64,000 bases of DNA from positions 127,214-191,213 of the forward strand of contig CAZEEU010000001.1 in NCBI GenBank assembly GCA_964511305.1, given 5' to 3'. The position numbers and the translations under genes were made by a program. How positions within the stretch are numbered: position 1 is the stretch's first letter; every line of letters starts with the position of its first letter. The notes under the pieces were generated by a model. It was not told the DNA's origin. It was given only the letters and a program-made list of their open reading frames with translations, and did no database searches. This document shows, in pieces, positions 21,420 to 49,483 of the stretch. This DNA is from an uncultured Gammaproteobacteria bacterium. Lineage in GTDB: Bacteria > Patescibacteriota > Microgenomatia > Levybacterales > GWA1-39-11.

Positions 21420-21452
21420 ATAAATCTAAAAATAAAAACTTAAAACAAAAAA

Positions 21453-21818
21453 CTATATTACTTTATTTTTCCAATACTTAAGTAAACCGATCAATTGTCT
21501 ACTTACCTCTATAGTTTTATCATGAACTGATGTGTAAGTATTTTCGTCAATATAATTGAGGTCCTTTGAAAGTAAAAGATGATACTTTGTTTCTTCAAGA
21601 GATCCATTTGCGATATAAAGAAATTCGATAAATTCTTTTCTGTGACCTCTCGAATTTCCCTCAATTATATTTGTTGTAACCGATGAGGCTGATCTTCTTA
21701 TTTGACTTACCAAACCAAACCTCTCATCGATAGGAAACATGGAGGAAACTTTGTATACATCCAGGACGAGTTCATGTGCAACTTTAAATATTGGGAGTGT
21801 TGTAAATTTATCAACCAT
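21453..21818 (-). CDS. Four-helix-bundle protein (23S rRNA intervening-sequence protein family)
   Basis: 121 aa: '…FKVAHELVLDVYKVSSMFPIDERFGLVSQIRRSASSVTTNIIEG…EFIEFLYIANGSLEETKYHLLLSKDL…'. I recognise this as the typical sequence of the family, in a free-standing copy. Confidence 0.7.
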   Translation of the reverse strand: MVDKFTTLPIFKVAHELVLDVYKVSSMFPIDERFGLVSQIRRSASSVTTNIIEGNSRGHRKEFIEFLYIANGSLEETKYHLLLSKDLNYIDENTYTSVHDKTIEVSRQLIGLLKYWKNKVI

Positions 21819-21836
21819 GCGTGGACTTTTTAGTTT

Positions 21837-22820
21837 TTAGTTATCTGTTTTATTGCTCTTGCTGTGCCAAGCGTATGCACTCCTCACAATCGTTGAAAGA
21901 TCTGAATATCGAGGCTCAAAATGTAATTCATTTGTAATGCGACTTACATCAGCAACCAGAGTGTCAGCGTCTCCCGGTCTTCTCTCCTCATATCTAACTT
22001 TCAACTCAAGGCCGGTTACATCCTGAATTGTTTGTGCGATTTCTTTATTGCTTTTGCCCCTTCCCGTTCCAACATTGTACGTATACCCTCCCGGGTTCTC
22101 TATGATTTTTTGAAGCGCTAAGACATGGGCTTCAACAAGATCTAATACGTGGATATAATCTCTTACACAGGTACCGTCTGGTGTGCTGTAATCATTTCCA
22201 TATATAACAAACTCTTTTCCTTCGCGCGCAGACTTAAGCGCAATAGGAATTATATGCGTTTCGGGCATATGTTCTTCTCCAAGACTCCCATCCATCATAG
22301 CTCCACAAGCATTAAAGTACCGAAGAACAGCATAGTTAAGCCCGTATATCGTTTTATGCCAAAAAAGCATCCGCTCAACCATCAATTTGCTCTCACCATA
22401 TGGGTTTGTAGGAACCTTTCGATCATCCTCTTGTATAGGTACCCGCTCTGGGTTACCGTAAACTCCTGCTGTTGATGAGAAAATGATATTCTTTACGCCA
22501 ATTTCATGTAGGCTATCGAGGAACATTTGTGTTTGGTGAGTATTTTGTTCAAAATAAAGTCCAGGATTTTCCATGGATTCCTTCATTGATATGTAGGCTG
22601 CAAAATGAATTACAGCTTCAAATTTATTTTCGGATGAAATTTTAGAAAGTAATTCTCGATCTCCTACCTTACCTCGGTAAAACGGTACATTCTCAGGAAC
22701 TACATGTTCATTTCCGCGCTCCAAGCTATCAAGAACAATTGGTTCGTATCCTTTTTCTAAAAGAGCACGAACCATAAAACTGCCTATATATCCTGCTCCA
22801 CCTGTAACTAATATTTTCAT
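21837..22820 (-). CDS. galE: UDP-glucose 4-epimerase
   Basis: 327 aa with 'MKILVTGGAGYIGS', '…YGESKLMVERML…' (YxxxK) and a GalE-like length. Confidence 0.9.
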   Translation of the reverse strand: MKILVTGGAGYIGSFMVRALLEKGYEPIVLDSLERGNEHVVPENVPFYRGKVGDRELLSKISSENKFEAVIHFAAYISMKESMENPGLYFEQNTHQTQMFLDSLHEIGVKNIIFSSTAGVYGNPERVPIQEDDRKVPTNPYGESKLMVERMLFWHKTIYGLNYAVLRYFNACGAMMDGSLGEEHMPETHIIPIALKSAREGKEFVIYGNDYSTPDGTCVRDYIHVLDLVEAHVLALQKIIENPGGYTYNVGTGRGKSNKEIAQTIQDVTGLELKVRYEERRPGDADTLVADVSRITNELHFEPRYSDLSTIVRSAYAWHSKSNKTDN

Positions 22821-22837
22821 ATATCTATTCTACCAAT

Positions 22838-24376
22838 TTATGGCTGCTCATTGAACCACCATCTTGTCGTTGTATCAGAAATTAGCCTCAAGGAATGTTT
22901 TTGCCAGTGCATCGCGCTTATAGAAGCACTACTGTGACTTGAGAGGTCTATCATATCAGTCCCGTTTATTCGAGTGAAATTCGCCTGCTTTATTTCAAAA
23001 TCAGGAACATGGCGCACGCCAGTTGGGTAGCAATTCTCATTTTCAAAACCTACCGGTCGTCCTTTATCTGAGAGCAATTTATGGCTATCCAGTAGAAAAA
23101 GGATCGAATGAGACTCTGAAGAGTAATACGTATTGCCTGGTCCAGGGCAAAGGAATAACTTAAATTTTTCGTTAGGGTACTGAGCAATTAGATGCTGTTC
23201 TGTCTCATACATTTGTACAGTAAATTTATCCTTTGTTAGGAGGGGAATTATTCTAGGAATATTAAAAATTAAAAGCGTAACAACAACTAGCAACAGATAT
23301 AGTTTTTTTATAGTACCTTTCTTGACTAACTGATAAAAATAGAAAATGACGTATCCTTCAAATATTAATATAAAAGGCCTAATATAGTTAAGGTAACCAA
23401 AGAATCGCTCACCCCAGTAGTATCTTAGAAGAATAAAGTTAAATACAAAAGCTATTACCAATACCAACAACTCTTTTGATACTTTTCGCTTATATATGCT
23501 GTATCCAAAAATCCCTCCAAAAATAATCATTACAATTGCGCCAACCAACCCAGGAATGCCTGTTACTTCTTCTATGTATGAAGGCCAAAAATCTCGTACG
23601 TAAAATAGCCACCTGTTGGGGACATAAATTAACTTTTTCCCTTCCGTGTAGTAATACAAAATATTTCTAAAATTAAACCAATGATTATTTAAATCGAAAA
23701 AGATCATGGGCAAGAAAGTTACAAACAGGCCAGCTCCTATACATAGAATGTTAATGTACCTTTTCGGCTTAAAGACTAATAACAATAAAGGAAGGATCAT
23801 AAGACCCATCATTTGATAGTGAATATTTATTGCTATACCTAACGAGGCCCCAAGAGCAAACCCCCACCAATATGAATGATTTTTACGAATAAGCTTAATA
23901 AATATATAGATGGAAAGAAAAGCAAAAAGATTTGATAGATTAGGATTTGTTAAATGAGTTCCTGAAAGAATAAGGGATGCTGATATTGCTCCCAAAAAGG
24001 CAAGTATTATTCCAAACTTTTTGTCAAAAAACTCTCCTATTTTGTAGAGCAGAAAAATGCATAAAACCGATGCGATGCTTAAATAAATCCACGGAGCATA
24101 AGGCACTTGAAAAACTATTCTTGCCAAAGCAAGTTGGTAGTAATACCAAGGGCCAAAAGTAAAGGGACCTGCGGAAGAGAATGGCCCAACAAGGGGAAGC
24201 TGCAGGTCTCGCGCACCAATGGTCGCAACAGCGGCATCCCTAATCGGTTCATCACTTAAGTTATACCTGAACGGATAGTTATAAAATCTTAAAATAAGTG
24301 CTACTACTATAAATAATGATAGACAATACTTCTCCCAGTTTTTCAAAATATGAATTCGCACTTTTTGAATATTCAT
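22838..24376 (-). CDS. GT-C glycosyltransferase, ArnT/PMT_2-like (subfamily B)
   Basis: The first-loop acidic motif 'YNLSDEPIRDAAVATIGARDLQLPLVGPFSSAGPFTFGPWYYYQLA' matches paralogs at 26815 and 28070, followed by more than 10 TM helices. The track ORF extends to 24454, but the ATG at 24376 overlaps the upstream stop as ATGA and is the more likely start. Confidence 0.75.
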   Translation of the reverse strand: MNIQKVRIHILKNWEKYCLSLFIVVALILRFYNYPFRYNLSDEPIRDAAVATIGARDLQLPLVGPFSSAGPFTFGPWYYYQLALARIVFQVPYAPWIYLSIASVLCIFLLYKIGEFFDKKFGIILAFLGAISASLILSGTHLTNPNLSNLFAFLSIYIFIKLIRKNHSYWWGFALGASLGIAINIHYQMMGLMILPLLLLVFKPKRYINILCIGAGLFVTFLPMIFFDLNNHWFNFRNILYYYTEGKKLIYVPNRWLFYVRDFWPSYIEEVTGIPGLVGAIVMIIFGGIFGYSIYKRKVSKELLVLVIAFVFNFILLRYYWGERFFGYLNYIRPFILIFEGYVIFYFYQLVKKGTIKKLYLLLVVVTLLIFNIPRIIPLLTKDKFTVQMYETEQHLIAQYPNEKFKLFLCPGPGNTYYSSESHSILFLLDSHKLLSDKGRPVGFENENCYPTGVRHVPDFEIKQANFTRINGTDMIDLSSHSSASISAMHWQKHSLRLISDTTTRWWFNEQP

Positions 24377-25146
24377 ATTTTTTTCCCTAAATATAGGTAA
24401 TAAGAAACAGGAAATCTGAGAGCAGACATTAAAGCAAAAACAAATCCTTGCCATCCATCCATAAAACCCTTGTGACGCCCGTATGCTGTAAGCATCCAGT
24501 GTGCCGGTTTTGCTAAGACATATCCAACACCTAGAACAAATTGCTGTAAGACATTTTTTCCCTTCATATCATCTTTAATCTGTTGAGCCAAAAGATGGTT
24601 ATATCTCATCCATTTTTTACGATAAAATGCAAAGTCTTTATAGGGGTAATGCAGCAAAGCCTCCTTTAAGTATCCGACTTTTCCTTCTATCACTGCCTGC
24701 TCGTGCACATCTTTTTGAGGCAAATGTCCTCTGCCATTTCGATATAGCCTAACAGTATAGTCAGGATATTGCCCCCCCTTCAACAAAAATCTTCCAAGGA
24801 AATAATTTTTCCGGGGCATCCAAAAGCCATTCTCCTCTGGGTCTTTTGAAATAATCTTTTTTATTTCCGAAGAAAGCTCTTCGGAAACTACTTCGTCAGC
24901 ATCCATTTGTAATATCCAGTCTCCAGTTGCTCGATCAATGGCCTTCTGCTTGTTGATGTGAAAATTTGTAGGATTGGTTGTAACAAGCACCTTTGCACCA
25001 AATGCCTTAGCAATTTCAACCGTTTTATCTTTAGATGTTCCATCCACTATCACTATTTCAGAAGCTAAAGATTTGACTGATTCTAAGCATCTTGGAAGAT
25101 TCTCTTCTTCGTTATATGTCGCCAAAACAACAGAAATTTTTTTCAT
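24373..25146 (-). CDS. Glycosyltransferase family 2 (WaaE/KdtX-like subfamily)
   Basis: 'ISVVLATYNEEENLPRCLESV…IVIVDGTSKDKT…WILQMDADEVVS'. Paralogous to 41405..42157 and 47062..47961. Confidence 0.85.
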   Translation of the reverse strand: MKKISVVLATYNEEENLPRCLESVKSLASEIVIVDGTSKDKTVEIAKAFGAKVLVTTNPTNFHINKQKAIDRATGDWILQMDADEVVSEELSSEIKKIISKDPEENGFWMPRKNYFLGRFLLKGGQYPDYTVRLYRNGRGHLPQKDVHEQAVIEGKVGYLKEALLHYPYKDFAFYRKKWMRYNHLLAQQIKDDMKGKNVLQQFVLGVGYVLAKPAHWMLTAYGRHKGFMDGWQGFVFALMSALRFPVSYYLYLGKKI

Positions 25147-25170
25147 GTATTAAATTTATCTTATCACGTA

Positions 25171-26814
25171 TTACCTCTCAACTACCTCAATAACCCTATC
25201 ACCATTGAGATTTTTAATTTCTTTAAGTATATTCCCTTTTTTGTATTCAGTAGGGTCAATCACCATAAGGATCCCATCTACTTTTACTTCTTGTGGATTA
25301 GTAAAAGATATATTGTTGATTAGATGATCATAATTAAGCCAACCCGATACAGAGCCTCCATTTTTTTGATATGTGACAGGATCGTATTTTTTATAAAAGA
25401 GATAGAACATGTAGCTTGCTGTGAGGTATCCTCGATTTGAGATTATTATTTTTTTCTGTTTGTTTTTTAAAGAATCCAAATACTCAAAAGACTGAATAAC
25501 TCCATATTGAAATTGGCTAGAATACTTCTGCGGAAAAACATTGAAATACGAAAGATAAAATTGGGAAATACTGATTGTAAAAATCAGGCATACAAAAGAT
25601 GCTAAGCCCACAATGAATGCTTTGTTTTTCTTTTTATATTGCTTTATAAGTCCAAGACTAGTACCTGATAGAAGAGATAGTACTCCAATTGTTGCAAATG
25701 AACGCATAGGCTGAGGTGCACCTGTCGTTAGGGCGCTAGGAAGAATACCTATCACATACCATGCAAAAAGGAACGTAAGCCATTTCCACTTTCTCTTTAA
25801 AACAAAAAAAGTGATCCCTCCAATCAGCAAAGGCAGCTCCATCAAATACATAAGTCCAAATCCAGGTATTCGAAACTGCCCATTCTCAGCACTTTTATAT
25901 AAAAATTCAAAAGTAAAATGGGAAAGAAAAGATTGAATGAAAATTACAATTGGCACTACGTTCCTGTTATATAAAATGATATTTACATAATCACTATTCT
26001 TTTTGTACTCAATTAATTTTTGAGCATTTTGATACCCTACTTCGAACGGAATATTAAAAACATTAGTTGCCTTAAATCGAAGCATTGCTTCCGGCTGAAG
26101 CGAGACCAATAAAATTGGCGAAATGACAGCAAGACCAACAAGTGATGCTACTAAAAATTTCTTCCAGTTATTCTTTACTAGTTTAAAATAACAGACGAAT
26201 AAAAGTATGAGAAATAATGGTATAAAAATTTTGCCACTTTGATACGCGTCAAATGAAAGAGCTAGAAATAATGATGACAGAACTAATTGCACCATGCTAA
26301 CTTGCTTTTTTTTAATCGAATTAAGAAAAAGGCCTAGACCAATGATAAAAAAAGATTGAAAGGCGTTAACTTCGTGACCAAGACGAGAAATATAGATATG
26401 CCATGGAGATATAGCCAATAGGAAAACAGGCATCAATGAAAGTGCTTCTGGCTTTGATACGCCAACTTCTTTAAAAATTCTTCGGGACGCAATATAGAAA
26501 AACAAAAGCGAAACAGTGGAAAGAATAACTGAAGGCATCCTCACAGCAGCTACAGTTAAATCTAACATCCACACAAATGGTATTACTAAATACACGTATA
26601 GTGCTGGCCTATAATCGTCGTATGCTCTTAATAATATTGGCCAACGATTGCCGAATTCATCTTTTCCCGTATGTAAAATCGAATAAGCATTATATCCAAT
26701 GGTTGCTTCGTCAAGAGATGGATGGGGAGGAATAGAATCAATTCTGTATACTCTCAGGAAAAGTCCAAAGAGAATAATAAAACATAGGAAAAAAATAACT
26801 GTTCTTTTATACAT
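25171..26814 (-). CDS. GT-C glycosyltransferase, GT39/ArnT-PMT-like (subfamily A)
   Basis: '…SLDEATIGYNAYSILHTGKDEFGNRWPILLRAYDDYRPALYVYLVIPFV…', i.e. the DE loop motif plus a 'KPPLYxYL'-type motif, then more than 10 TMs. 547 aa. Confidence 0.85.
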   Translation of the reverse strand: MYKRTVIFFLCFIILFGLFLRVYRIDSIPPHPSLDEATIGYNAYSILHTGKDEFGNRWPILLRAYDDYRPALYVYLVIPFVWMLDLTVAAVRMPSVILSTVSLLFFYIASRRIFKEVGVSKPEALSLMPVFLLAISPWHIYISRLGHEVNAFQSFFIIGLGLFLNSIKKKQVSMVQLVLSSLFLALSFDAYQSGKIFIPLFLILLFVCYFKLVKNNWKKFLVASLVGLAVISPILLVSLQPEAMLRFKATNVFNIPFEVGYQNAQKLIEYKKNSDYVNIILYNRNVVPIVIFIQSFLSHFTFEFLYKSAENGQFRIPGFGLMYLMELPLLIGGITFFVLKRKWKWLTFLFAWYVIGILPSALTTGAPQPMRSFATIGVLSLLSGTSLGLIKQYKKKNKAFIVGLASFVCLIFTISISQFYLSYFNVFPQKYSSQFQYGVIQSFEYLDSLKNKQKKIIISNRGYLTASYMFYLFYKKYDPVTYQKNGGSVSGWLNYDHLINNISFTNPQEVKVDGILMVIDPTEYKKGNILKEIKNLNGDRVIEVVER

Positions 26815-28089
26815 TTAATGCTTTAACGTTGTATATAAATAATACAAATACGATTGGGGATCACCCTGAACAAATTCAATTTTTTCACCTTTTGCCATTT
26901 TATCTTTAACTATTTTTTTATGCATTGACAAACTTTGTGGCCCTTGATCGATAAAAATGATAGTGTTTATGTAAATATAGTAAATTCCAACAATTCCTAA
27001 AAGACAATACACATAGATTTTCTTTGTATTTATCAATCGAAGAATGATGTAAGAAAATATTAAAATCGCAATTGGCCTAGTAATGGCAAAGTAATAATTA
27101 GTCAACTCTCCTGAATATGTTGAGAATGCAAACCATGGAACAACAATCCATATGAGTGATAAATAAAGGAACAATACATTTTTTCTCTCAATTTTCCCTT
27201 TCAAAAATAAATAGACTGCAATTGGAATAGATGCAAAAGAAACAAAATGAGCATAAGGTATAGTCAAAATCGAATTGAATTCTATAACCGCGTCTTTTAT
27301 TAACTGAGCAACACGCCTAAGATGAAATCCATGAAACGTACTTCCTAAATATGTAGTTGCAGTAGCTGCCTGCTTCGTCAAAATGTAGTTGAGAATGATT
27401 GGAAATACGAAGAAGATAAAAATTGGAACTGATATAAGAAATGGTTTTAACAATTTTTTTGTCCTTGGAAAAAAAGGCAATGCAAGTAAGATTAAAAGTC
27501 CATAAAAGACAGAGGTAAAGTGAATATGTAGCGAAAAACCGACAGACGCCGCTAAAAGAATTAAGTATTTTGGCTTATTGTTGAGAATTTGATATAGACT
27601 AAAAAGCACAAGAAAAGAAATCGGAACTATAAAATCAACTGGCCACTGGACCCGATCAAGAATCAATATATATGATGAAAAGGTATTAATAAAAATTGCT
27701 ATAAGTGCAGCCTTTTCTCCAAACATACTTTTGGTCACAAAATATACAACAAAGAATGTGAAGATAGAGACAACCAAGGCTGCTATTGGAGAAGCGATTG
27801 GGTCCATTGCTGTTACGAAATAAAATGGGGCAAGAAAGTAATAATAATATGGTCCAATATAAAATCCTGTGTTACCCTTTGCCTGCATTCCTACAAGAGG
27901 CAGCTTCCCATCTATTAAAATGTCTTTTGCTGCCCATGCATTATCTACTTGGTCATACCCAAATCCGCTTTTAGTTTCGGGCATGATAAATCTTGTAACA
28001 ATAAGCACTAAAAAAAGAACACAAAATAATAAAAGGTATAACTTACTTGAAAAATATTTTTTGATTAATTTATTGGCTTTCTTTTTCAT
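26815..28089 (-). CDS. GT-C glycosyltransferase, ArnT/PMT_2-like (subfamily B)
   Basis: 424 aa: '…FGYDQVDNAWAAKDILIDGKLPLVGMQAKGNTGFYIGPYYYYFLAPFYFV…', multi-TM. Confidence 0.75.
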   Translation of the reverse strand: MKKKANKLIKKYFSSKLYLLLFCVLFLVLIVTRFIMPETKSGFGYDQVDNAWAAKDILIDGKLPLVGMQAKGNTGFYIGPYYYYFLAPFYFVTAMDPIASPIAALVVSIFTFFVVYFVTKSMFGEKAALIAIFINTFSSYILILDRVQWPVDFIVPISFLVLFSLYQILNNKPKYLILLAASVGFSLHIHFTSVFYGLLILLALPFFPRTKKLLKPFLISVPIFIFFVFPIILNYILTKQAATATTYLGSTFHGFHLRRVAQLIKDAVIEFNSILTIPYAHFVSFASIPIAVYLFLKGKIERKNVLFLYLSLIWIVVPWFAFSTYSGELTNYYFAITRPIAILIFSYIILRLINTKKIYVYCLLGIVGIYYIYINTIIFIDQGPQSLSMHKKIVKDKMAKGEKIEFVQGDPQSYLYYLYTTLKH

Positions 28090-29584
28090 AGGATCTTTTT
28101 TGGATAATTACACCACTGGGCCTTTTAATAGTACTCACTACTTTACCATCTTTTATCACAGTCTGAAGCCAACCCTCATATGACCATGGCTTGTAAGGGT
28201 CAACTTCTATTATAAGATATGTTACTTTCTTCTTTTCATATGGCGGTATGTACCCATACTTTTGTTTTCCTCTCCAATAAAATAGGTAGTCGTATGGATA
28301 TGTATATACAGGCGGGTTAAATATGAGCACTCCAAAGTCTTTTGACTTAGCATCCTTATATACATAGTCAACCGCATCAAGCTTACCCTTTATTTTTGCG
28401 TCTCCTCCGTAGTCAGCTATGTCATAGGTAATCATTTTGAAAAACTTTGGAACAGATAGCAGCACGCTCACTGTTAGCAGTAAAACAAATGGTAGTAATG
28501 CGTACTGACGAATTATAGTTTTTAGTTTGATTTTTTGAAGTATAAAAACGAAAAGAATATTGTAAGCAACAACCAGGTGAAATAAATAATATTGATAAAC
28601 TGTATTTCTGAGCATGAATAACGATAGGAATGTTACTAAAGGCAACAATAGTAAATAAATAATGAATGAATCAACTTTTTTGTTTTTATATAACGAGTAC
28701 ATAAGTGCAATCAAAAATGTAGTCAAAAATAAAAGAGCTGGGATGTTGTCATGAAAAGGGAGCGAATCAACAACATTAAAAAGAAAACTTCCTAAATGGT
28801 CAATTTGATAGGTTAGGATATTGGCACTTTCATTTCTTCCAGGTGTTTTTATATATGAAATTACCCCATGAATAGCCATAAAATTATGCTTAATCTCAAA
28901 AATGATCATAGGAAGTGCTGCTGTAATAAATCCCGAAAATATTAAAGCGTAGTACTTTACAGATTTCTCTTTAAGAACAAGAATCGAATAAACCAGAAGA
29001 GTAATTACTAGAGGCACTGCAATTGCAAATTCGAAATGATAAACAAGAGCTGAGAAAAATGCAGATAAAAATACCCAAATCTTTTTTTCACGAATTCTTA
29101 CAATACAATAAAATGCAATCAAAGAAAAAAGGGTTGAAGGATACGGACTCCAAATAAACCTTGATTGTGCAATGAGTGGCGGTGAAATTGCCAACAATGA
29201 AGTAAGAACTATGGCCCAGTTAGTCGTAAATAATCTTTTCCCAAGAAGAAATGACACTCCCAGAGCACATAGCCCAAAGAAAAACATCAGAACAACACCC
29301 CCATATGGATCTCCACGAAAAAGAACATATGGTATGGCCAGCAAATAATAATAAAGAGGTCCATGGAATATACCTTGAAAACCGGCCGAGCCGGCACCCA
29401 GTGGCGTGCCTATGAGGCGTAGATCGTGATAATCAACTATATCCCTTGTCATCAAGTACTCTCGTCCGTGATCAAATCCAAATATATAATTACCGTTTAA
29501 AATTTCTATTCCACGACTTAATATGCCAATTGTTAGGCATACTGCAAAAAAAGCAACTAAAGCTATTTTTTTAAAGTTCTTCAT
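28070..29584 (-). CDS. GT-C glycosyltransferase, ArnT/PMT_2-like (subfamily B)
   Basis: 504 aa: '…FGFDHGREYLMTRDIVDYHDLRLIGTPLGAGSAGFQGIFHGPLYYYLLAIPYV…', multi-TM. Confidence 0.75.
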   Translation of the reverse strand: MKNFKKIALVAFFAVCLTIGILSRGIEILNGNYIFGFDHGREYLMTRDIVDYHDLRLIGTPLGAGSAGFQGIFHGPLYYYLLAIPYVLFRGDPYGGVVLMFFFGLCALGVSFLLGKRLFTTNWAIVLTSLLAISPPLIAQSRFIWSPYPSTLFSLIAFYCIVRIREKKIWVFLSAFFSALVYHFEFAIAVPLVITLLVYSILVLKEKSVKYYALIFSGFITAALPMIIFEIKHNFMAIHGVISYIKTPGRNESANILTYQIDHLGSFLFNVVDSLPFHDNIPALLFLTTFLIALMYSLYKNKKVDSFIIYLLLLPLVTFLSLFMLRNTVYQYYLFHLVVAYNILFVFILQKIKLKTIIRQYALLPFVLLLTVSVLLSVPKFFKMITYDIADYGGDAKIKGKLDAVDYVYKDAKSKDFGVLIFNPPVYTYPYDYLFYWRGKQKYGYIPPYEKKKVTYLIIEVDPYKPWSYEGWLQTVIKDGKVVSTIKRPSGVIIQKRSYEKESQ

Positions 29585-31261
29585 TTATTTTTCAAATACG
29601 GATATTGCTTCCTGCCCGTTTGGATAACGTACTTTATATTTAACCTGGTGTAAGGAAGCTTCCTGTGGTCTGCCGACATATAGCACTCTTCCCGTATAAT
29701 TTGCGCCTGAAGTAGGCTCAAATGTGTAGTTATCAAAACCCTTATGCCTTTCTTTCCATCCGCCACTTAAAGTGCCACCAAGCTTTTGATACTTGGCAGG
29801 ATCAATATTTAGATAAAATAAGAAGAACATATATGACTGGTCGAAAGGGATTTCATTTTCAACAACTATTTTGTCGTATTTATTTGCGTTCACAGATACA
29901 TACTTTATTGCCTGCTTGTATCCATACAACCAGTCTTGAGCAGTAAAGTAATTCATCTGAGAAAAGTACTGATTAAAATAATAAGAAATATTAAGAAGGG
30001 CCAATGCGCAGTATAAGCCTGAAATAGCGAGAAATAGATACTTTAACAATCCTTTCTTTCGGGTCTTAACAAAAATAATAATTGCAAAAATTCCTAGTGC
30101 AATCATTAATTCATAGGTCCACGCAAAATTTAGAGTTCTTACGGCGTGAGGAACCCCACTTGTAATGGATGCAGGCACAGGCACTAACAAGAAGTATGCA
30201 AAAAAAGACATCTTATGTCTCTTGTCAATTTTTAGAAACACTAATGTATATATGCCAACTAACAGTAGCGGGAACTCAAATATATACAAGAGTCCCATGA
30301 ATGGCGCGTGATGACGAGTTATGTCTCCAGTTATAAATAGCCAGTTGAGGTCAAAGTGAGAAATATAGCCATATCCTACAGCCTTAACATACTCTACCCG
30401 TCTGTTATCCAGTATTTTTCCAATAATATTTCCTTCCGCTTCATCTCTTAATAATTTTTCGGATGACCTTTTGACAATTGATTGCTCTGCAAAAATACTT
30501 ACACCCTTTGCTCTCATAAGAGCATTGTTGTTAGATAAAATGTACACACCAAGAGGAAGAGCAACAAGTACTGCTGTGACAATTGAAAGTGCAAGAATTT
30601 TCTTGTTGTCGATCACTTTCTTTATGAAAATTATCGACAAAACTATTACAAGAAGCGGAGAAAAAACTCTCTCGCTCTGGTACATGTGGAGATTTAATGC
30701 TGCAAGCCCAAATGCAAAAGGAAGATATGCGGGCTTTTTAAGACCTTTGAGAAAAAACAAAAAAACAGCAATATTAATAGTAAGTCCAACGTTAGATTCA
30801 AAAGCAATTCGAGAGAACTGGATATGCCATGGAGAAATACTTAACAACAGTGAAACTAAAAGCGCGACGTACTCTGATTTTATTTCAACTTCCCCTATAG
30901 AAATCTTTTTAGTACCAAGCAGCAAACGTGCTAAAAAGTAAACGAGCGCAACAGCGATGACTCCTGCAATTGATGAAGGAAGCCTTACGGCTTGCTCAGT
31001 CAAACCTAAAATTGCGACAAATGGAATATCAAGATATGCATAAAGAGCTGGCTTGTAATCATCGTAAGATCTTAAAACTACCGGTAGAAATGCGCCGTAT
31101 TCGTCCCTACCTGTTGTGAGAATCGATTTTGCGTTGTATCCAAGAGCAACTTCATCCCAATTGAGACTAAGTGGCGTTATTCCTAAATCATATGTCCTTA
31201 GAAATCCAGCAAAAACTAAAATCGCAAAAAGTATAATTAATGGTTTTTGGAAAATTCTCAT
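29585..31261 (-). CDS. GT-C glycosyltransferase, GT39/ArnT-PMT-like (subfamily A)
   Basis: 558 aa: '…SLNWDEVALGYNAKSILTTGRDEYGAFLPVVLRSYDDYKPALYAYLDIPFV…'. Confidence 0.85.
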   Translation of the reverse strand: MRIFQKPLIILFAILVFAGFLRTYDLGITPLSLNWDEVALGYNAKSILTTGRDEYGAFLPVVLRSYDDYKPALYAYLDIPFVAILGLTEQAVRLPSSIAGVIAVALVYFLARLLLGTKKISIGEVEIKSEYVALLVSLLLSISPWHIQFSRIAFESNVGLTINIAVFLFFLKGLKKPAYLPFAFGLAALNLHMYQSERVFSPLLVIVLSIIFIKKVIDNKKILALSIVTAVLVALPLGVYILSNNNALMRAKGVSIFAEQSIVKRSSEKLLRDEAEGNIIGKILDNRRVEYVKAVGYGYISHFDLNWLFITGDITRHHAPFMGLLYIFEFPLLLVGIYTLVFLKIDKRHKMSFFAYFLLVPVPASITSGVPHAVRTLNFAWTYELMIALGIFAIIIFVKTRKKGLLKYLFLAISGLYCALALLNISYYFNQYFSQMNYFTAQDWLYGYKQAIKYVSVNANKYDKIVVENEIPFDQSYMFFLFYLNIDPAKYQKLGGTLSGGWKERHKGFDNYTFEPTSGANYTGRVLYVGRPQEASLHQVKYKVRYPNGQEAISVFEK

Positions 31262-32883
31262 ATTGTATACGCAACTAATATAGTTCTGCCATTGAGCAAT
31301 TTAAATTCCTTAAGTCTCCTACTCCCATTAGGCAGCTCGTCAGGATGCACGATATATAAAGCATTTTTCTTTTTAGCCTGTTGAGGTTTTTCTGAAAAAT
31401 ATATTTTGTCAAAACTTCGTACATGCACAAATCCTAAAGGTTCTCTGTATATATCTGCGCTTAGTCTAAATTTTTCAGGATTGTATTTTAAATAGAAAAG
31501 ATAATAAATATACGGCCTTCCTAAAGCTTCTGTCATATAAATCTCGTCGTATGTATTAAAGTTATTCTGAACATACGAAATTGCCTCTTTGTACCCATAC
31601 TGCCATTCCCCAGAATATTCTTTAGGATATTGGAAGAAAAGATTATGTCCAAAATAAATCACAGAAAACAAAATTACTATTGAAAGGGCAATTTTGGAGA
31701 ATATTTGGACTTTACCTCTAAGCATTCCTATCGCAACACAGGCTCCGATTGCGCTAACTATTTGGAAGAAAGGTACCGCACTCTCTGTACGTAATGCATG
31801 AGGCGTTTCACGAGCAAATCCTGCAGGAATGAGAGCTACACCAATCATAAAAGGAACTACCCACCAATGCTTAGTTCTTTTCCGAAACAGAACTAAAAAA
31901 CCAATAATAAGAAATGGCAGCTCCCATAAATACATCTGGCCAACATCCTGTACCGAAAATTTAGGATTCCCATCACCAGTAACAAAGAGGTATTTTGGTG
32001 TTAAGTTGTCGAAATAATGTTTGAGGTACTCTACTCCATATGCAAATCTTCTGTTATGAATTATTTTCGAATAAGCGGAATTATTATCATTAGCCACTTC
32101 TTGATTTGTCCTGTTAATAACTGAAATATCAGAAAATATATTAACTTCGGCAAATCGTAATTTAGCTTGAGGTGATTGAAGGAATATAAATAAGGGAAGA
32201 AACAAAGTAACGCCAATTACAGCAGCAGTTATTGTTACAGTTAAATTTTTAAGCAAGAATTTGAAATGAACTATTAAAAGTACGGCAATAATTATGGGGA
32301 CCGTTACTCTTGCCGAATTAAACGTATACATTGAAGCAACAAACGAAAGGACTGATAGAGGTAAATACCATTTTTTTTCATTAATGCTTTTGAAAAAGAA
32401 CAGAAGACCCAGAACAATAAGCATTGTCGAAACATTTGCCTCAAAAGCGGCTCTTGAAAGCATAATGTGCCACGGAGAAATTGCAACAATAAAAGAAGCA
32501 ACTAATGCTTCTTTCTGTCTATCTTTTCCGAATAACTGAATGACAAGCAAGTATGTTAGAAAAACAGTTATAACCCCAGCTACAGCTGACGGCAACCTCA
32601 CAGCCAATTCAGTCATACCAAGAATTTTTACTGGCAATATATCCAGATAAGCATATAGTGGAGGCTTAAAGTCACCGAATGATTCCAGATATAAAATAGG
32701 CAAAAAAACTCCAAATTCATCCTTACCATCAAGACCAAGTGAATACGCATTATATCCCCATGCAACCTCGTCCCACGTCAAAGAAGGTGGATTTACTGAA
32801 AGATGAAACAGCCTAAAGAAGGTAGCTACCAATAATATTCCTAGAAGAATTAATACGACCTTATTTTTCATATATTTTGTCAT
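31258..32883 (-). CDS. GT-C glycosyltransferase, GT39/ArnT-PMT-like (subfamily A)
   Basis: 541 aa: '…SLTWDEVAWGYNAYSLGLDGKDEFGVFLPILYLESFGDFKPPLYAYLDILPV…'. Tandem paralog of 29585..31261 with a 4-bp overlap. Confidence 0.85.
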   Translation of the reverse strand: MTKYMKNKVVLILLGILLVATFFRLFHLSVNPPSLTWDEVAWGYNAYSLGLDGKDEFGVFLPILYLESFGDFKPPLYAYLDILPVKILGMTELAVRLPSAVAGVITVFLTYLLVIQLFGKDRQKEALVASFIVAISPWHIMLSRAAFEANVSTMLIVLGLLFFFKSINEKKWYLPLSVLSFVASMYTFNSARVTVPIIIAVLLIVHFKFLLKNLTVTITAAVIGVTLFLPLFIFLQSPQAKLRFAEVNIFSDISVINRTNQEVANDNNSAYSKIIHNRRFAYGVEYLKHYFDNLTPKYLFVTGDGNPKFSVQDVGQMYLWELPFLIIGFLVLFRKRTKHWWVVPFMIGVALIPAGFARETPHALRTESAVPFFQIVSAIGACVAIGMLRGKVQIFSKIALSIVILFSVIYFGHNLFFQYPKEYSGEWQYGYKEAISYVQNNFNTYDEIYMTEALGRPYIYYLFYLKYNPEKFRLSADIYREPLGFVHVRSFDKIYFSEKPQQAKKKNALYIVHPDELPNGSRRLKEFKLLNGRTILVAYTI

Positions 32884-34849
32884 TGGACTCGTCTTTTAAT
32901 ATAGTATCAATTTTTTGATGATTGGCCTTAAGCACATTCACTTCTTTATTCTTATATATGGTATCTAAAAATATTGCAGAATTTGTAGCAAAAAGACTAG
33001 TTTTAGGACCAAGAACGATATAGGAAATATTATTTGTTTTGATTGCACGGGCAACATCCGAAAGTCCGCCGTCCATAATTATTGTTTGTACCGAAATAGG
33101 CTTAGTCACTTTCACATTATGACTTTCAAGAATTTGAATTCCCGATAAAAACATTGGCTGATTTGAAAAATATGCGATATATGGACTCGATTTATCCAAA
33201 GCAAAATATGTATGGTCAACAACAACCAATCCCTTAGGCTGCGCTGAAAGAAATGAAAATGCGTTCAGCTGGTTATTGCTTAATGTCAGCATTTGATGAG
33301 TTGTTAATCTTCTTACATTTTGTTTAGTTTCAAAAAACACTCTAGGAATTGTCAGTCCAATAATAACAACAGCTATAAGAAAACCTACTTTCTTAAATGA
33401 CGTGAGCCAGAAAACCGTTGCGGCAGTATAAATACTTCCAAAAACAAAAACATTCACAAGAAAGTTAAAAGTATTTGAACCCCCAGAAGTCTGCTGAAAA
33501 AAGAAGCCAACAATAAGACTTGGGATAATGCCAGCAATAAGAAAGATGTGCAATTCAACAGGAAATAAATTCAAACTTTTTCTTGATTGTATAAGCCCAA
33601 GTAATTTAGTACCAAATAACGCAAACACGGTAATTCCGACATAGAGTACTTCAAATGCAAATGCCTTTAGTGGTTTGGAGTCTTCAGCAAATATCCGTCT
33701 TGCCAACTCTAACCTTTCAAGTTGTAAATATGGTTGCACTATAAAATTTTCAAAAAACCAAAATGATGTGAAATACAAACCACCCGCACCACGATTTACC
33801 GGAAGGTAAATGATGGCAACGACTGCTGCGCAAATACAAACAAGTAACAGATTAAAATATTGCCTCTTAATAATCCACCAGATGCTTAGCGCGCCAAGGC
33901 CTGCTATTGCAAATATCCCAACGTACACTTTAAAACCTATTAGGGTTCCAAAAACCACTCCCAAAATTAAGGTTGTTGCTATATTCCGCTTATTTGAAAG
34001 CCAATGACTCAACAATATTAGACCACCAAATAATTGCACGGTTGCGAATGCACGGGGAGGATTACTAAGAAATTTTGCTCCATCCTCTAAAGAACTCATG
34101 CTGAAGAAGTTAGTTCCCTTCTGAAGAAATATCATAAGCATCCATATAAAATCTCCACCAAAATAAACAAATATTAGCAACCAGAATGCATATCGTATTT
34201 TTTTTGTATAACTTAAGCTAAATACTAATACAACAAGTCCTAAAAGAGCCGGAAGATAGACTGCAGATACTTGGTACTGCAAAATATTGACCGGAATCAT
34301 AAAAACCCGACTTAGGTCGGCAATAAATACATTCGATAAATAATGATAATTTTTAACTATGACTCCTGAAAGACCTGGTTCATAGGGAGGAATATTTTTG
34401 ATAATTTCATGGCTTAAGGAGAGAAAATACAAATTGTCGCTTGCATCTATGCAACAGAATGAAATACCCTGAGTCTCTTTTACACCCATGAATATTCCAA
34501 ATGACATTTGCATCAATATTCCAAGAATAATAATGCCAACGATAGGAAATAACGATTTTGGGATACCCAAATGAATCTTTATATTTCGGAATTTGACAAT
34601 CCAAATTGCCAGTGCTCCTATTATATAAAGGTGTGATACAAACCTTATGTTAAGAAATCCTATTATAAAGCCGAGTAATACCCACGAAGCGGTACCTATG
34701 ACAAAAGAAGACACTATAGAACTAAGTGGAGACAGGGAGAGCTTGGAGGAGCGCAACATAACTGCTCCCGGAATAAAAATTGCCAAAAAGATAGCTAAAA
34801 AAGAATAGGAAAAGTAAAAAATAAATTCAACGGAGAGTAAATTGTACAT
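32861..34849 (-). CDS. Polytopic membrane protein (GT-C-like, family unassigned) with a C-terminal ~190-aa soluble domain
   Basis: 662 aa with about 14 hydrophobic helices. It carries the loop motif '…CCIDASDNLYFLSLSHEIIKNIPPYEPGLSG…' and a hydrophilic C-terminal domain. Confidence 0.7.
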   Translation of the reverse strand: MYNLLSVEFIFYFSYSFLAIFLAIFIPGAVMLRSSKLSLSPLSSIVSSFVIGTASWVLLGFIIGFLNIRFVSHLYIIGALAIWIVKFRNIKIHLGIPKSLFPIVGIIILGILMQMSFGIFMGVKETQGISFCCIDASDNLYFLSLSHEIIKNIPPYEPGLSGVIVKNYHYLSNVFIADLSRVFMIPVNILQYQVSAVYLPALLGLVVLVFSLSYTKKIRYAFWLLIFVYFGGDFIWMLMIFLQKGTNFFSMSSLEDGAKFLSNPPRAFATVQLFGGLILLSHWLSNKRNIATTLILGVVFGTLIGFKVYVGIFAIAGLGALSIWWIIKRQYFNLLLVCICAAVVAIIYLPVNRGAGGLYFTSFWFFENFIVQPYLQLERLELARRIFAEDSKPLKAFAFEVLYVGITVFALFGTKLLGLIQSRKSLNLFPVELHIFLIAGIIPSLIVGFFFQQTSGGSNTFNFLVNVFVFGSIYTAATVFWLTSFKKVGFLIAVVIIGLTIPRVFFETKQNVRRLTTHQMLTLSNNQLNAFSFLSAQPKGLVVVDHTYFALDKSSPYIAYFSNQPMFLSGIQILESHNVKVTKPISVQTIIMDGGLSDVARAIKTNNISYIVLGPKTSLFATNSAIFLDTIYKNKEVNVLKANHQKIDTILKDESNDKIYEK

Positions 34850-34851
34850 TG

Positions 34852-36090
34852 CTATTTACCTTCACTTTCATCTGGCCAAAAGTAAGCTGTTAAAAATACC
34901 ATAGTAAGATACCCTACGTGACTATTATTAAAATATCGAGACATATACCAATATACAAATACCAAAAGGCCATAGGAAAGAATTAAGATTTTTACTTTAG
35001 GATACTTACGTAAAAAGCCCAGCAAAATCACCAACACAGGAACCACAAAAAGCACTTGCCACAGAACGAATGGATAAGAGGAATTCAAGTCTTTAATAAA
35101 ACCTAATTGATGAAGTAGCATTCCCAAACCATAACCGGATATTGGATAGCTATGTGCAGTATTTCCTGATAGGTAAAAAACAGTACTATCAAGAAAAGCA
35201 CCCGGATTCCATAGAAAAAAGGGAATAACTAGGATGGCAAATGTTACAAAAAAAGAACTTAAACGAATCGTTGTACGACGAAGATTATCAGATACAAAAT
35301 ATATATAAGCAACATACAGCGGTATGAAAGGCCATATAGACTGCTTAACTGCAAAAGCAAGTGCTAGAAGAATTCCCGAAATGAGGTACTTCTTACGTGA
35401 TAATAGGATCATTGACAGAAAAAAGAATGCAAACATAAAAACGTCACTTCTGCCCTCTAAGGTATAAGCAAACATCGCAGGATTAAGCGCTAAAATACCT
35501 GTAAAAATAAGTTTTTGCTCTTTATCTTTTATGAAGTAAAAGGCACTAATACAAAGAGAAAGGTACAAAAAGAATAATGGAATACGACCATCAAAATACC
35601 CAATTGTATGATTTGAAATGTAATAAAACGGAAGTGAAAAGAGCAAATAAAATGGCATCATCACAAAATGGTACAGGGCTGGGTTAACTGCGGTATCACT
35701 ATAGTGCCACTGCGCCATAAACGTGTTGTGATATGTAGCTGCCCAAGGATTGATACCATCTAGGAAAAACCTTATTGCAGCCTCGAGTTGTAAGATAATA
35801 TCGTGGATCTGAAAAAGAGGTGCAACTTTGTGACGCACCATAATTGCTGAGATAAATGTACCCCCTACAACGAGTGCAAGAAGAGTCCAAAAAACAATGT
35901 ATTTAAAAAAGTAATACCTTTTTTCAGGCATCGGGACTATATCAAGTAAAAAATTGATAAATATTCCTGCAAATATCAAACCGAACTGGATGTAATTTGT
36001 GTCACCAGGAAAAATCTGATATGTCATTATCACGGGGATAAGAAGTGCCGCCAATATTACGCTGGACAAAGAAAGGCGCTGGTTTTTCAT
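34852..36090 (-). CDS. Polytopic membrane protein, possibly DUF2029/GT87-like GT-C
   Basis: 412 aa, about 10-11 TMs and no large soluble domain. It sits between the GT-C gene 32861..34849 downstream and a DPM1-like GT2 upstream. The family call is tentative. Confidence 0.65.
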   Translation of the reverse strand: MKNQRLSLSSVILAALLIPVIMTYQIFPGDTNYIQFGLIFAGIFINFLLDIVPMPEKRYYFFKYIVFWTLLALVVGGTFISAIMVRHKVAPLFQIHDIILQLEAAIRFFLDGINPWAATYHNTFMAQWHYSDTAVNPALYHFVMMPFYLLFSLPFYYISNHTIGYFDGRIPLFFLYLSLCISAFYFIKDKEQKLIFTGILALNPAMFAYTLEGRSDVFMFAFFFLSMILLSRKKYLISGILLALAFAVKQSIWPFIPLYVAYIYFVSDNLRRTTIRLSSFFVTFAILVIPFFLWNPGAFLDSTVFYLSGNTAHSYPISGYGLGMLLHQLGFIKDLNSSYPFVLWQVLFVVPVLVILLGFLRKYPKVKILILSYGLLVFVYWYMSRYFNNSHVGYLTMVFLTAYFWPDESEGK

Positions 36091-37741: not shown

Positions 37742-37742
37742 T

Positions 37743-41062: not shown

Positions 41063-41162
41063 GAAGTAAGTATAAAGAGCTTAATACTTTATTCTTATTG
41101 CTTAATTCTTCATATATTCTATCAACATTGCGCAAGAAAAGCTCATGTGCTAGAGTTGATAT
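41063..41162. promoter_or_regulatory. Longest intergenic spacer in the window (100 bp, AT-rich); probable promoter region for the GT4 gene and/or the plus-strand small ORF
   Basis: It is the only spacer of about 100 bp in an otherwise tightly packed locus. I did not identify a specific motif with confidence. Confidence 0.25.
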
Positions 41163-41408
41163 ATGAAAAATCCTGATCCACTTAGTTTTGCTCTTATCAT
41201 TCTTATTTCGGTTATACAGTTAACGATTAAAGGTTTTGCATTATGGAGAGCTTCGCAAGGCAAGCAAAGGAACTGGTTCCTTGTTCTTTTCGTACTTCTT
41301 CCAATCAACGAGTTTGGGATTGTAGAGATACTGTTCCTCTTTAAATTTGCCAAGAAAAAACTCACGCTTGCTGAAATCCAATCCTGGTTGAAGTTTGGAA
41401 AAAACTAA
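41163..41408 (+). CDS. Small 2-TM membrane protein (hypothetical)
   Basis: 81 aa with two clear hydrophobic helices (LSFALIILISVIQLTIKGFALW and WFLVLFVLLPINEFGIVEILFLF) and a Lys-rich amphipathic tail. It converges on the GT2 at 41405 with a 4-bp overlap. The competing antisense ORF 41241..41567 has no membrane or domain features. Confidence 0.45.
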   Translation: MKNPDPLSFALIILISVIQLTIKGFALWRASQGKQRNWFLVLFVLLPINEFGIVEILFLFKFAKKKLTLAEIQSWLKFGKN

Positions 41409-49467: not shown

Positions 49468-49483
49468 ATGTACTCTTCTTCTA

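Follow-up and report, generated by a model that had tools for sequence, protein, structure and literature searches.

Gene content of the array

The window, that is, the whole 64-kb stretch of DNA analysed here, originates from a genome of Candidatus Levybacteria (CPR/Patescibacteria), an uncultured bacterium with a tiny genome. At least 19 genes for related membrane enzymes of the GT-C type occupy about half of it, six of them at positions 22838–32883 and at least 13 others elsewhere. The six, all on the minus strand, were recovered as open reading frames, and independent gene calls on near-identical contigs gave the same lengths (512, 547, 424, 504, 558 and 541 aa, in order of position). They belong to two subfamilies. 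Subfamily B is represented by 22838–24376 (with an ATG at 24376, the longest ORF reaching 24454), by 26815–28089, a short form without the C-terminal domain, and by 28070–29584. Subfamily A comprises 25171–26814 and a pair formed by 31258–32883 (upstream) and 29585–31261 (downstream). The earlier note had described six consecutive genes; they are not strictly so, because a GT2 gene (24373–25146, minus strand) intervenes between the first two. Its product matches Pfam Glycos_transf_2, with GmaR (E 4e-18) and then SunS as best PDB matches, and it has paralogs at 41405–42157 and 47062–47961.

The six genes are part of a 13-gene operon-like run extending from 41062 to 22838, with intergenic gaps of −31 to +24 nt. 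Two uncharacterised membrane proteins are encoded in the same run. The first (32861–34849, minus strand, 662 aa, polytopic) is syntenic with the array in L006–L010 and L020, and yielded no Pfam, NCBIfam or PDB match; hhalign did not connect it with any of the GT-C families. The second (34852–36090, minus strand, 412 aa) is also array-syntenic, with orthologs 71–84% identical; it lacks a Pfam match and reaches an hhalign probability of only 47–54% against the A and B profiles. A GT2 enzyme of the rhamnosyltransferase-like class (36812–37741, minus strand, 309 aa; Pfam and NCBIfam matches) is found a little further along.

Four additional genes at the other end of the window had been assigned to the same set. 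All are GT-C genes; one of them lies on the plus strand and another falls in neither subfamily. Subfamily A includes 53536–55170 (minus strand, 544 aa), whose product is 36% identical to those of 29585 and 31258, 59165–60874 (plus strand, 569 aa; BLAST to A members E 1e-42 to 1e-56) and 60864–62507 (minus strand, 547 aa; E 1e-52 to 1e-65). The last gene, 62491–64000 (minus strand), is truncated where the window stops; its full length, seen in L080 and L081, is 520 aa, and it represents a separate PMT_2 lineage (hhalign 84.6% to A, 50.7% to B).

In addition to these ten paralogs, at least nine GT-C genes of further families, missed by the earlier note, are located between and around the two groups. 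Three encode YfhO-family proteins: 37743–40007 (minus strand, 754 aa, Pfam YfhO 89.5 bits) and its paralogs 42154–44472 (minus strand, 772 aa, 77.1 bits) and 56845–59181 (plus strand, 778 aa, 64.4 bits). Four are PTPS_related genes: 44488–46176 (minus strand, 562 aa, PF10131 47.6 bits; hhalign 94.9% to family A and 98% to YfhO), 50178–51872 (minus strand, 564 aa, 44 bits), 55215–56864 (plus strand, 549 aa, 39.3 bits) and, by paralogy, 51879–53534 (minus strand, 551 aa), which has no Pfam match and is 26–29% identical over its full length to the other three (BLAST E 1e-45 to 1e-62). Two are AftD-like: 1256–3139 (minus strand, 627 aa; PF11847 GT-C_AftD 27.2 bits; hhalign 95.4% to the PTPS_related profile) and its paralog 3451–6786 (minus strand, 1111 aa; 25–28% identity, BLAST E 2e-12), a large membrane protein and probable GT-C whose N-terminus aligns with the PTPS_related profile (hhalign 87.7%).

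Fold, catalytic loop and age of the paralogs

All six genes at 22838–32883 encode polytopic membrane proteins of the GT-C fold, and each of the ten PMT_2-type, A or B proteins has 9–13 hydrophobic segments. The AF2 models of A and B form a helical bundle (pTM 0.91–0.92) followed in the C-terminal part by a small alpha/beta domain, and both match ArnT, STT3, ALG12 and PMT structures; for the 28070 protein (pLDDT 90) the best Foldseek match is ArnT (E 7e-8). With each of the solved GT-Cs, identity amounts to just 10–15%. The Pfam PMT_2 gathering cut-off (26.1 bits) is exceeded by 22838 (33.7 bits), 26815 (31 bits), 31258, 53536 (49.4 bits) and 62491 (36.4 bits), and narrowly missed by 29585 (25.8 bits) and 59165 (22.8 bits). 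PMT_2 finds no match in 25171, 28070 and 60864, which we count as GT-C because of BLAST, hhalign and the AF2 model of 28070. Neither 25171 nor 28070 has any Pfam match, and most orthologs of the latter carry PF13231.

Within subfamily A, six members share 27–36% identity, and BLAST links its members without a PMT_2 match with E values of 1e-43 to 1e-104; the 25171 protein, which has its own ortholog clade, aligns with the others over its full length at 29–32% identity (E 1e-43 to 1e-76). The three members of subfamily B had been grouped by a shared motif, which indeed occurs in all of them (D...LPLVG...GP.YYY.LA in 22838, 26815 and 28070) and is absent from 62491, but they form a looser group, 23–27% identical over 150–260 aa. 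The profile of 28070 orthologs recovers 22838 (hhalign 97.8%, E 1e-12) and 26815 (98.5%, E 1.6e-15; its ortholog in L006 is 72% identical). Subfamilies A and B are themselves homologous over about 420 columns (hhalign 98–98.7%).

The motifs proposed for the two subfamilies proved to be real and conserved in position, both falling in the first loop after TM1. In an alignment of 47 family A sequences, 26 columns are invariant, among them D38, E39, D55, G58, Y77 and Y79. In family B, D38 is at least 90% conserved. The hhalign alignment of A and B places D38 on D38 and KPPLY on HGPLY; relative to family A, E39 is replaced in B by Q, H or another residue and K73 by H. The family A profile aligns with ArnT (5EZM) over 165 residues (E 0.005), KPP motif included. 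This putative catalytic loop is the most conserved region both within and between ortholog clades, whereas the second large loop is conserved inside clades and differs between them. Judging from the K-rich N-terminus, loop 1 is probably extracytoplasmic.

The paralogy is old. In related genomes every one of these genes has a syntenic partner, 54–84% identical, that groups with it in a separate ortholog clade, and the differences in gene content among these genomes are only partial. The same arrays occur in more than 70 loci of Levybacteria, Gottesmanbacteria and other Microgenomates. A translationally coupled A-pair, a 31258-type gene and then a 29585-type gene, is conserved in 58 of 61 related loci, the second directly following the first in 46 of the 61.

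A possible role in surface glycan assembly

The window is one large glycan-biosynthesis island. Besides the GT-C genes, it encodes polymer-type functions such as DegT aminotransferases, epimerases/dehydratases, a GNAT protein, methyltransferases and GT4 and GT2 enzymes; the search of the window revealed neither an initiating phosphoglycosyltransferase nor an LCP ligase nor a recognisable Wzy polymerase. Three short GT2 proteins, all encoded on the minus strand, are DPMS-like candidates for polyprenyl-phosphate-sugar synthases, and one more candidate lies just beyond the window. The 36087–36815 protein matches dolichol-phosphate mannose synthase 5MLZ best (E 1.6e-16, residues 8–220, covering the entire catalytic domain), then ArnC and GtrB, with sub-threshold NCBIfam matches to AglJ, ArnC, PpgS and a Dol-P-hexose transferase. 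The second (49484–50197) is 32% identical to it and matches the NCBIfam models AglJ, ArnC and PpgS, the last over nearly its full length, below the cut-off. The third (18280–19056) is 30% identical to the 36087 protein (E 4e-21), with PgfS, AglJ, ArnC and PpgS as sub-threshold matches. None of the three has a TM anchor. GT-C genes flank 36087 and 49484 with operon-like spacing. The only flippase candidates in the window are two minus-strand Wzx-type genes, 48010–49539 (Polysacc_synt; PF13440 166.9 bits) and 19118–20404 (PF01943 and PF13440), for which export of repeat units is an equally possible role. No GtrA-family match was detected among window ORFs of at least 100 aa.

On the basis of sequence and gene context, we consider it probable (about 0.6) that the array encodes a set of transferases which depend on lipid-phosphate sugars and which, outside the membrane, build up a glycopolymer of the cell surface or possibly modify surface proteins. 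On the cytoplasmic side of the membrane, the soluble DPMS-like GT2 enzymes would use nucleotide sugars to charge polyprenyl phosphate with monosaccharides, and the lipid-linked sugars would then be flipped, possibly by the two Wzx-type transporters. Each GT-C paralog would finally move its sugar outside the membrane to a specific acceptor position, making one linkage, with the help of first-loop residues that may be D38/E39, D55 and K73-P-P in family A and D38 and H-G-P in family B. The most likely acceptor would be a cell-envelope glycopolymer whose backbone may come from the Wzx-dependent GT4/GT2 genes of the island; with such an acceptor, the array would be an extracytoplasmic assembly and decoration line. 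There are precedents in Gram-positive bacteria, where teichoic acids and rhamnans are the targets of the PMT_2-type GT-Cs GtlB, GacL, CsdD/F and GtsC, and where the Wzx-type protein GacK has been proposed to flip C55-P-sugars (PMC8035078). Three-component systems of this kind are widespread (PMC11127046).

The six genes had been called ArnT/PMT-like. This holds for the fold and the structural matches; membership in either family does not follow. As for ArnT (CAZy GT83), no NCBIfam ArnT model was matched by any of the ten proteins, and identity to ArnT (undecaprenyl-phosphate-L-Ara4N:lipid A transferase; 5EZM/5F15) is only 10–13%. ArnT is a single-copy enzyme, whereas ten copies are present here. 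The Ara4N partners ArnA (formyltransferase/decarboxylase), ArnD (deformylase) and ArnE/F (flippase) are absent from the 57 window ORFs scanned, among which there are just generic DegT aminotransferases and GT2 genes. The window also contains no lipid A genes; CPR bacteria are generally regarded as lacking lipid A. As for GT39 proper, neither the MIR domain nor the C-terminal PMT_4TMC module was found with Pfam, and identity to PMTs (yeast Pmt1-Pmt2 6P25, Pmt4, actinobacterial Pmt) is 14–15%. The DE dipeptide of PMTs is invariant in family A, whereas the E is missing from family B. The N-terminal PMT domain of Pfam (PF02366) appears in the precomputed annotation of most 31258 orthologs, but at E ≤ 0.01 none of the window proteins matched it. 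No candidate for a Ser/Thr protein acceptor is encoded in the window.

Alternative readings and known systems

The array could instead be a protein O-glycosylation battery, in which PMT-like enzymes attach sugars carried on polyprenyl phosphate to Ser/Thr residues of secreted proteins (such as S-layer proteins, pilins or adhesins), each paralog or pair recognising its own set of acceptors. Such a division of protein acceptors among paralogs is known in eukaryotes (Pmt1–6, TMTC1–4), and the GT2 protein encoded inside the array resembles the protein- or peptide-glycosylating GmaR and SunS, which favours this explanation. We nevertheless hold it to be rather unlikely: no MIR or PMT_4TMC domain was found, the matches to ArnT, ALG12 and STT3 are at least as good as those to PMTs, and the surrounding island has the look of polysaccharide biosynthesis. 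Moreover, the characterised PMT_2-type enzymes of monoderms mostly act on polymers (PMC8035078). Still less probable is that part or even the whole of the set consists of GT-C-fold proteins with a function other than transfer, for example Agl23-like flipping of lipid-linked glycans or scaffolding, or of catalytically dead paralogs acting as partners. Agl23 (TIGR03663), a haloarchaeal PMT_2-like protein annotated as flippase activity-associated and not a proven transferase, is the sole NCBIfam model to match family A and 28070, family B lacks the E39 and K73 of family A, and the 26815 protein is without the C-terminal domain. However, the Agl23 scores (23–50 bits) lie far under the cut-off of 126 bits, so that membership was rejected; the loop-1 Asp is kept in nine of nine A and B proteins within a motif strongly conserved in orthologs, and every matched solved GT-C with this loop is a transferase.

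The earlier note had also suggested repeated duplication and diversification leading to a surface glycan 'code'. This interpretation is supported in part. A fast-evolving island of recent duplicates, under diversifying selection for phage escape or host recognition and with strain-specific copy numbers, seems improbable to us, though less so than a function other than transfer. It would be consistent with the differences in content among related genomes (the 28070 ortholog is missing in L007; additional A and B genes are present in L008, L009, L010 and L020), with a nonsense SNP in 28070 in one near-identical population, and with the left third of the window being matched on only one other contig. 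Copy number does vary, from 1 to 7 family A genes per 21 kb, but the A-pair is fixed in 58 of 61 loci. Against recent duplication, the paralogs are just 23–36% identical and have the syntenic orthologs described above; over 19.7 kb, a second population shows 99.985% identity, and no simple-sequence tracts able to drive phase variation were found. Finally, the low GC content of the window (33–37%) and the several members without a Pfam match could suggest that the motifs are compositional artefacts in unrelated hydrophobic proteins. This can practically be dismissed in view of the full-length BLAST matches, the invariant columns, the high-confidence AF2 models matching GT-C structures and the alignment with the ArnT KPP motif.

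Elaboration of a surface glycopolymer is the reading we prefer, and it can be compared with two kinds of system. Multi-component transmembrane glycosylation, as in GtrA/GtrB/Gtr(type), CsbB/GtcA/YfhO and GacI/GacK/GacL (PMC8035078, PMC11127046), likewise combines a GT2 polyprenyl-phosphate-sugar synthase (here a candidate) and flippase candidates with PMT_2/YfhO-type GT-C enzymes. Known systems pair one GT2 with one GT-C, and a genome has only a few such pairs (B. subtilis has three; PMC8035078). The present locus differs in having about four donor synthase candidates alongside 19 or more GT-C genes within about 67 kb, and in that no GtrA-type flippase was seen.

A second parallel may be offered by mycobacteria, whose GT-C set for arabinogalactan, LAM and PIM (EmbA/B/C, AftA–D, MptA/B, PimE) works with Ppm1, PpgS and DPA synthesis. 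By analogy, many GT-Cs fed by few polyprenyl-phosphate-sugar donors could assemble a complex glycan of the cell envelope outside the membrane. Parts of mycobacterial type are present here, namely the AftD-like genes, the PpgS/DPMS-like GT2 genes and, a short way outside the window, a gene of the MptA_B family, and the conserved A-pair might correspond to the EmbA–EmbB heterodimer. The type of enzyme is already known; what is unusual in this bacterium is how many of them sit packed together.

Content and extent of the island

According to Pfam and NCBIfam scans of 57 ORFs, the whole 64 kb is a glycan-biosynthesis island. It has a GC content of 33-37% and is nearly all coding, mostly on the minus strand. 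At least 19 GT-C genes occupy about 11,500 codons (about 35 kb, or about 54% of the 64 kb). They are accompanied by three GT4 and nine GT2 glycosyltransferase genes, two Wzx-type (Polysacc_synt) transporter genes, very many genes for polytopic membrane proteins, and sugar-modifying genes encoding DegT-type aminotransferases, NAD-dependent epimerases/dehydratases, a GNAT acetyltransferase and two methyltransferases. To the right of the window edge lie the rest of gene 62491, an MptA_B-family GT-C gene, another short GT2 gene and then housekeeping genes. No tRNA gene and no Rfam match was found in the window, which therefore has no obvious integration site or riboswitch. Midway along the island, flanked by an epimerase and a GT4 gene, a minus-strand gene (21453-21818) that is kept in near-identical contigs encodes a 121-aa four-helix bundle of the '23S rRNA intervening sequence protein' family (PF05635) with a weak bAvd-like match.

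Exact copies of the 31258-32883 protein are present on 11 public metagenome contigs, and 60864 is on at least 23. The leftmost gene (84-1259) occurs on one other public contig only, and its neighbour 1256-3139 had no exact match in the public contigs searched. The left, O-antigen-like part of the island (1-22800), as opposed to 22800-64000, may be strain-specific. The nearest genomes are MAGs of Candidatus Levybacteria/Levyibacteriota; remoter matches fall in Gottesmanbacteria, Roizmanbacteria and other Patescibacteria. Related MAGs are single contigs of 0.84-0.95 Mb, which fits a genome of about 1 Mb. Counterparts of the array at 40-73% identity (L006-L077 in our set of related loci) occur in dozens of TPA MAG records whose titles, 'uncultured Gammaproteobacteria' or 'Pseudomonadales', look like taxonomic mislabels.

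Two diverged GT-C families

The earlier note described six consecutive minus-strand GT-C genes (22838-24376, 25171-26814, 26815-28089, 28070-29584, 29585-31261 and 31258-32883). The ORFs are as described, and their product lengths (512, 547, 424, 504, 558 and 541 aa) agree with independent gene calls on near-identical contigs, but a GT2 gene (24373-25146) separates the first GT-C gene from the second. The division into two subfamilies holds for nine of the ten paralogs that the note had listed. Family A (25171, 29585, 31258, 53536, 59165 and 60864) is held together by 27-36% full-length identity in BLAST (E 1e-42 to 1e-104). Family B (22838, 26815 and 28070) shows 23-27% identity across 150-260 aa in BLAST, together with profile matches: a profile of 28070 orthologs built without 22838 and 26815 matches the former at 97.8% (hhalign, E 1e-12) and the latter at 98.5% (E 1.6e-15). 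All ten proteins are GT-C, although 62491, which is cut by the window end and measures 520 aa in full, belongs to neither family (hhalign 84.6% to A and 50.7% to B); 59165 lies on the plus strand.

The list of ten was also too short, as it omitted at least nine further GT-C genes of the window: three of the YfhO family (37743, 42154 and 56845), four PTPS_related (44488, 50178, 51879 and 55215) and two AftD-like (1256 and 3451). The latter of these AftD-like paralogs (3451-6786, minus strand) encodes a 1111-aa membrane protein. Some 650 aa of it form a non-membrane region that matches no family, and the protein has a weak, sub-threshold match to the trehalose-lipid delivery protein MmpA. The Pfam PMT_2 gathering score is passed by five of the ten listed proteins and narrowly missed by 29585 and 59165; 25171, 28070 and 60864 have no match to this model.

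The loop-1 motifs that define the two families, which the earlier note had considered might be compositional, proved to be positional homologs in profile-profile alignment. In a 47-sequence alignment of family A, D38, E39, D55, G58, P62, Y77 and Y79 are invariant and W37, G53, E56, K73, P74 and P75 are at least 90% conserved. Each of the three B proteins carries motif B. The A and B profiles are homologous across about 420 columns (hhalign 98.7%, E 2e-16; still 98.0% with the window paralogs left out of the B profile). W-D38-E of A is aligned with F-D38-H/Q of B, and F-K-P-P-L-Y with F-H-G-P-L-Y, so that the two motifs represent one structural element in two diverged families. More remotely, the family A profile matches PTPS_related at 94.9%, and PTPS_related matches YfhO at 98% (hhalign).

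Searches of PDB sequences with a six-sequence family A profile returned nothing relevant; the 47-sequence profile found only ArnT (E 0.005), placing KPPLYAYL on ArnT KPPFHMW, presumably the loop-1 Lys-Pro-Pro region that touches undecaprenyl phosphate. As these matches were nil or weak, a fold comparison was required. AF2 models built from deep alignments were of high confidence for both 31258 (pLDDT 93.3, pTM 0.92) and 28070 (pLDDT 90.0, pTM 0.91). Comparison with solved GT-C enzymes gave values for ALG12 (25.3), ArnT (24.0), STT3B (23.8), AglB (22.8), Pmt4 (22.2), Pmt2 (21.0) and PglB (19.1), which indicates a generic GT-C_A fold about equidistant from the solved families; identity of families A and B to any solved GT-C is 10-15%.

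The proteins belong to the GT-C superfamily, each testable feature of which was found. None of the listed proteins matches the curated ArnT models of GT83, and the Arn pathway partners are absent from the window. The evidence for PMT/GT39 is mixed to negative: the DE motif occurs in family A and not in B, no window protein matches PF02366 at E <= 0.01, and the MIR and PMT_4TMC modules are absent as well. Among NCBIfam models, only TIGR03663 reaches both families; this model, for the haloarchaeal 'flippase activity-associated protein Agl23', scores 23-50 bits with 31258, 53536, 59165, 60864 and 28070, far under its cut-off of 126. Since orthologs are already annotated in public records as 'glycosyltransferase family 39 protein' or 'ArnT-like', the assignment is imprecise rather than new.

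Synteny, old duplications and a fixed gene pair

In the closest genome locus (L006), gene order is as in the window (YfhO, GT2, GT2, 34852, 32861, 31258, 29585, 28070, 26815, 25171), with 54-84% protein identity. Gene content differs among more distant relatives: one locus (L007) is missing the 28070 ortholog, in four (L008, L009, L010 and L020) additional A and B genes have been inserted upstream of 31258, and Gottesmanbacteria loci hold seven family A genes within 21 kb. Gain and loss between genomes are moderate. Every window paralog falls in a separate ortholog clade of a neighbour-joining tree, and some of these clades are older than the split between Levybacteria and Gottesmanbacteria, which implies that the duplications are old and the copies individually retained.

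Of 61 related loci with sufficient sequence, 58 have a 31258-type gene directly followed by a 29585- or 53536-type gene (median gap -4 nt); the 31258- and 29585-type genes overlap by 4 nt in most related loci. Two distinct family A paralogs thus form a fixed, translationally coupled pair, and their products possibly form a heterodimer. The two large loops differ in conservation. The first extracytoplasmic loop (26-91 in 31258 numbering) has a within-clade conservation of 0.78 and the same consensus residue across three clades at 48% of positions, as against 0.67 and 18% for the second (236-320). This pattern is compatible with a shared donor/catalytic site combined with clade-specific acceptor recognition.

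The nearest population (ERZ794922) is 99.985% identical across 19.7 kb, with three SNPs. A T-to-A nonsense SNP there (L083, 10678-11904) shortens the 28070 product from 504 to 408 aa; as contig coverage is only about 5.7x, the stop may be a sequencing error, or it may be a true null allele. Phase variation by simple repeats was rejected, as A/T runs stay below 9 nt and a C7 at 24772 is the lone G/C run to reach 7.

Upstream of the pair, 32861-34849 (minus strand) encodes a 662-aa polytopic membrane protein. The gene overlaps the 31258 start by 23 nt, with conserved synteny in Levybacteria. Pfam, NCBIfam and PDB searches with the protein found no match, and profile comparison did not connect it with any GT-C family of the window. 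Only 150 homologs, all 'hypothetical' or unnamed, were found in a database of 5.8 billion proteins, and the invariant charged residues are D138, R181, D233, E255, R266, K307, E367, K415 and R503. The adjacent gene (34852-36090, minus strand) encodes a 412-aa membrane protein without a family, 71-84% identical in related loci, that reaches families A and B with only 47-54% probability (hhalign). In the left part of the island, two convergent genes (12318-13808, plus; 13805-15274, minus) encode paralogous membrane proteins, 37% identical and with 10-12 hydrophobic segments, that have no Pfam or NCBIfam family and no GT-C profile link; they could be Wzy-type polymerases or ligases. A GT-C relationship was sought by Pfam, NCBIfam, PDB profile and hhalign for these four proteins and for 7519-9585, and none was convincing.

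A putative extracytoplasmic assembly line and its meaning

From 41062 to 22838, 13 genes are separated by -31 to +24 nt, a spacing that suggests a single operon; in a scan of 21450-41440 for promoters and terminators, counts did not exceed the shuffled expectation, which speaks neither for nor against it. The sole sizeable intergenic gap of this region (41062-41405) holds a candidate 81-aa ORF with two hydrophobic segments on the opposite strand (41163-41408, plus). The GT2 genes fall into three classes: short soluble, GmaR/SunS-like and rhamnosyltransferase-like. The short soluble enzymes (18280, 36087, 49484 and one past the window) are candidate polyprenyl-phosphate-sugar synthases that would supply the donors; 36087-36815 has dolichol-phosphate mannose synthase as its best solved relative (E 1.6e-16 across the entire catalytic domain), with ArnC and GtrB next in rank. 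The Wzx-type genes are the sole flippase candidates; in Streptococcus, the Wzx-type protein GacK has been proposed to flip C55-P-GlcNAc (PMC8035078).

We consider it probable (roughly 60%) that the array is an extracytoplasmic line for the assembly and decoration of a cell-envelope glycopolymer. The chief alternative, O-glycosylation of surface proteins in the manner of PMTs, would agree with the DE motif, the GT39 annotation of orthologs and the conserved pair of A genes, as well as with the GmaR/SunS-like GT2 genes; yet the polysaccharide-type gene context and the missing MIR and PMT_4TMC domains make it rather unlikely. Three paralogous GT2 genes (24373-25146, 41405-42157 and 47062-47961, all minus strand) resemble protein- or peptide-glycosylating enzymes; the first has its best solved relative in GmaR (E 4e-18), which transfers O-GlcNAc to Listeria flagellin, and also matches SunS.

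These candidate parts match the inventory of three- and multi-component transmembrane glycosylation (PMC8035078; PMC11127046). Unlike those systems, the island combines about four candidate donor synthases with at least 19 GT-C genes. Such a ratio resembles mycobacterial arabinan and mannan assembly, of which an AftD-like gene (in the window) and an MptA_B-family gene (just past its edge) are seen here too. A bolder combined reading, which we regard as a long shot, is a Microgenomates-type CPR factory for a complex envelope glycan or lipoglycan, in which some 20 GT-C enzymes devoted to the task would draw on about four lipid-linked sugar donors and build the glycan almost wholly outside the membrane. 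Such an assembly line, mycobacterium-like and of independent origin in a 1-Mb genome, would centre on an obligate heterodimer of two ancient family A paralogs, the 31258- and 29585-type proteins, analogous to Pmt1-Pmt2 or EmbA-EmbB, and 32861-34849 and 34852-36090 would be new enzyme families of the same pathway. If it were true, the glycan would rank among the main determinants of attachment to hosts or of phage resistance.

Both the enzymes and the logic of the pathway have precedents in other bacteria, so the type of system is not new. Its striking features are how densely GT-C genes are packed in a genome of about 1 Mb, how the arrays are conserved across the lineage, the fixed pairing of two paralogs and the two syntenic membrane-protein families (32861-34849 and 34852-36090) without detectable relatives. 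The literature searched, with many subscription papers outside its reach, held no description of GT-C arrays in Microgenomates; one Microgenomates genome has 29 glycosyltransferase genes (PMC7143001), and Peribacteria carry about eight genes annotated as Dol-P-Man transferases (PMC4736985). At 10-15% identity to solved GT-C enzymes, families A and B offer material for the definition of CAZy families.

CPR/Patescibacteria, with genomes of about 1 Mb, are missing many biosynthetic pathways, and the members cultivated to date grow attached to host cells. The same arrays were found again in Levybacteria, Gottesmanbacteria and relatives, and this recurrence, together with the GT-C share of the window, suggests that an elaborate surface glycan, assembled extracellularly, is a core trait of this lineage. 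The array thereby gives targets for studies of glycan chemistry and of host and phage recognition.
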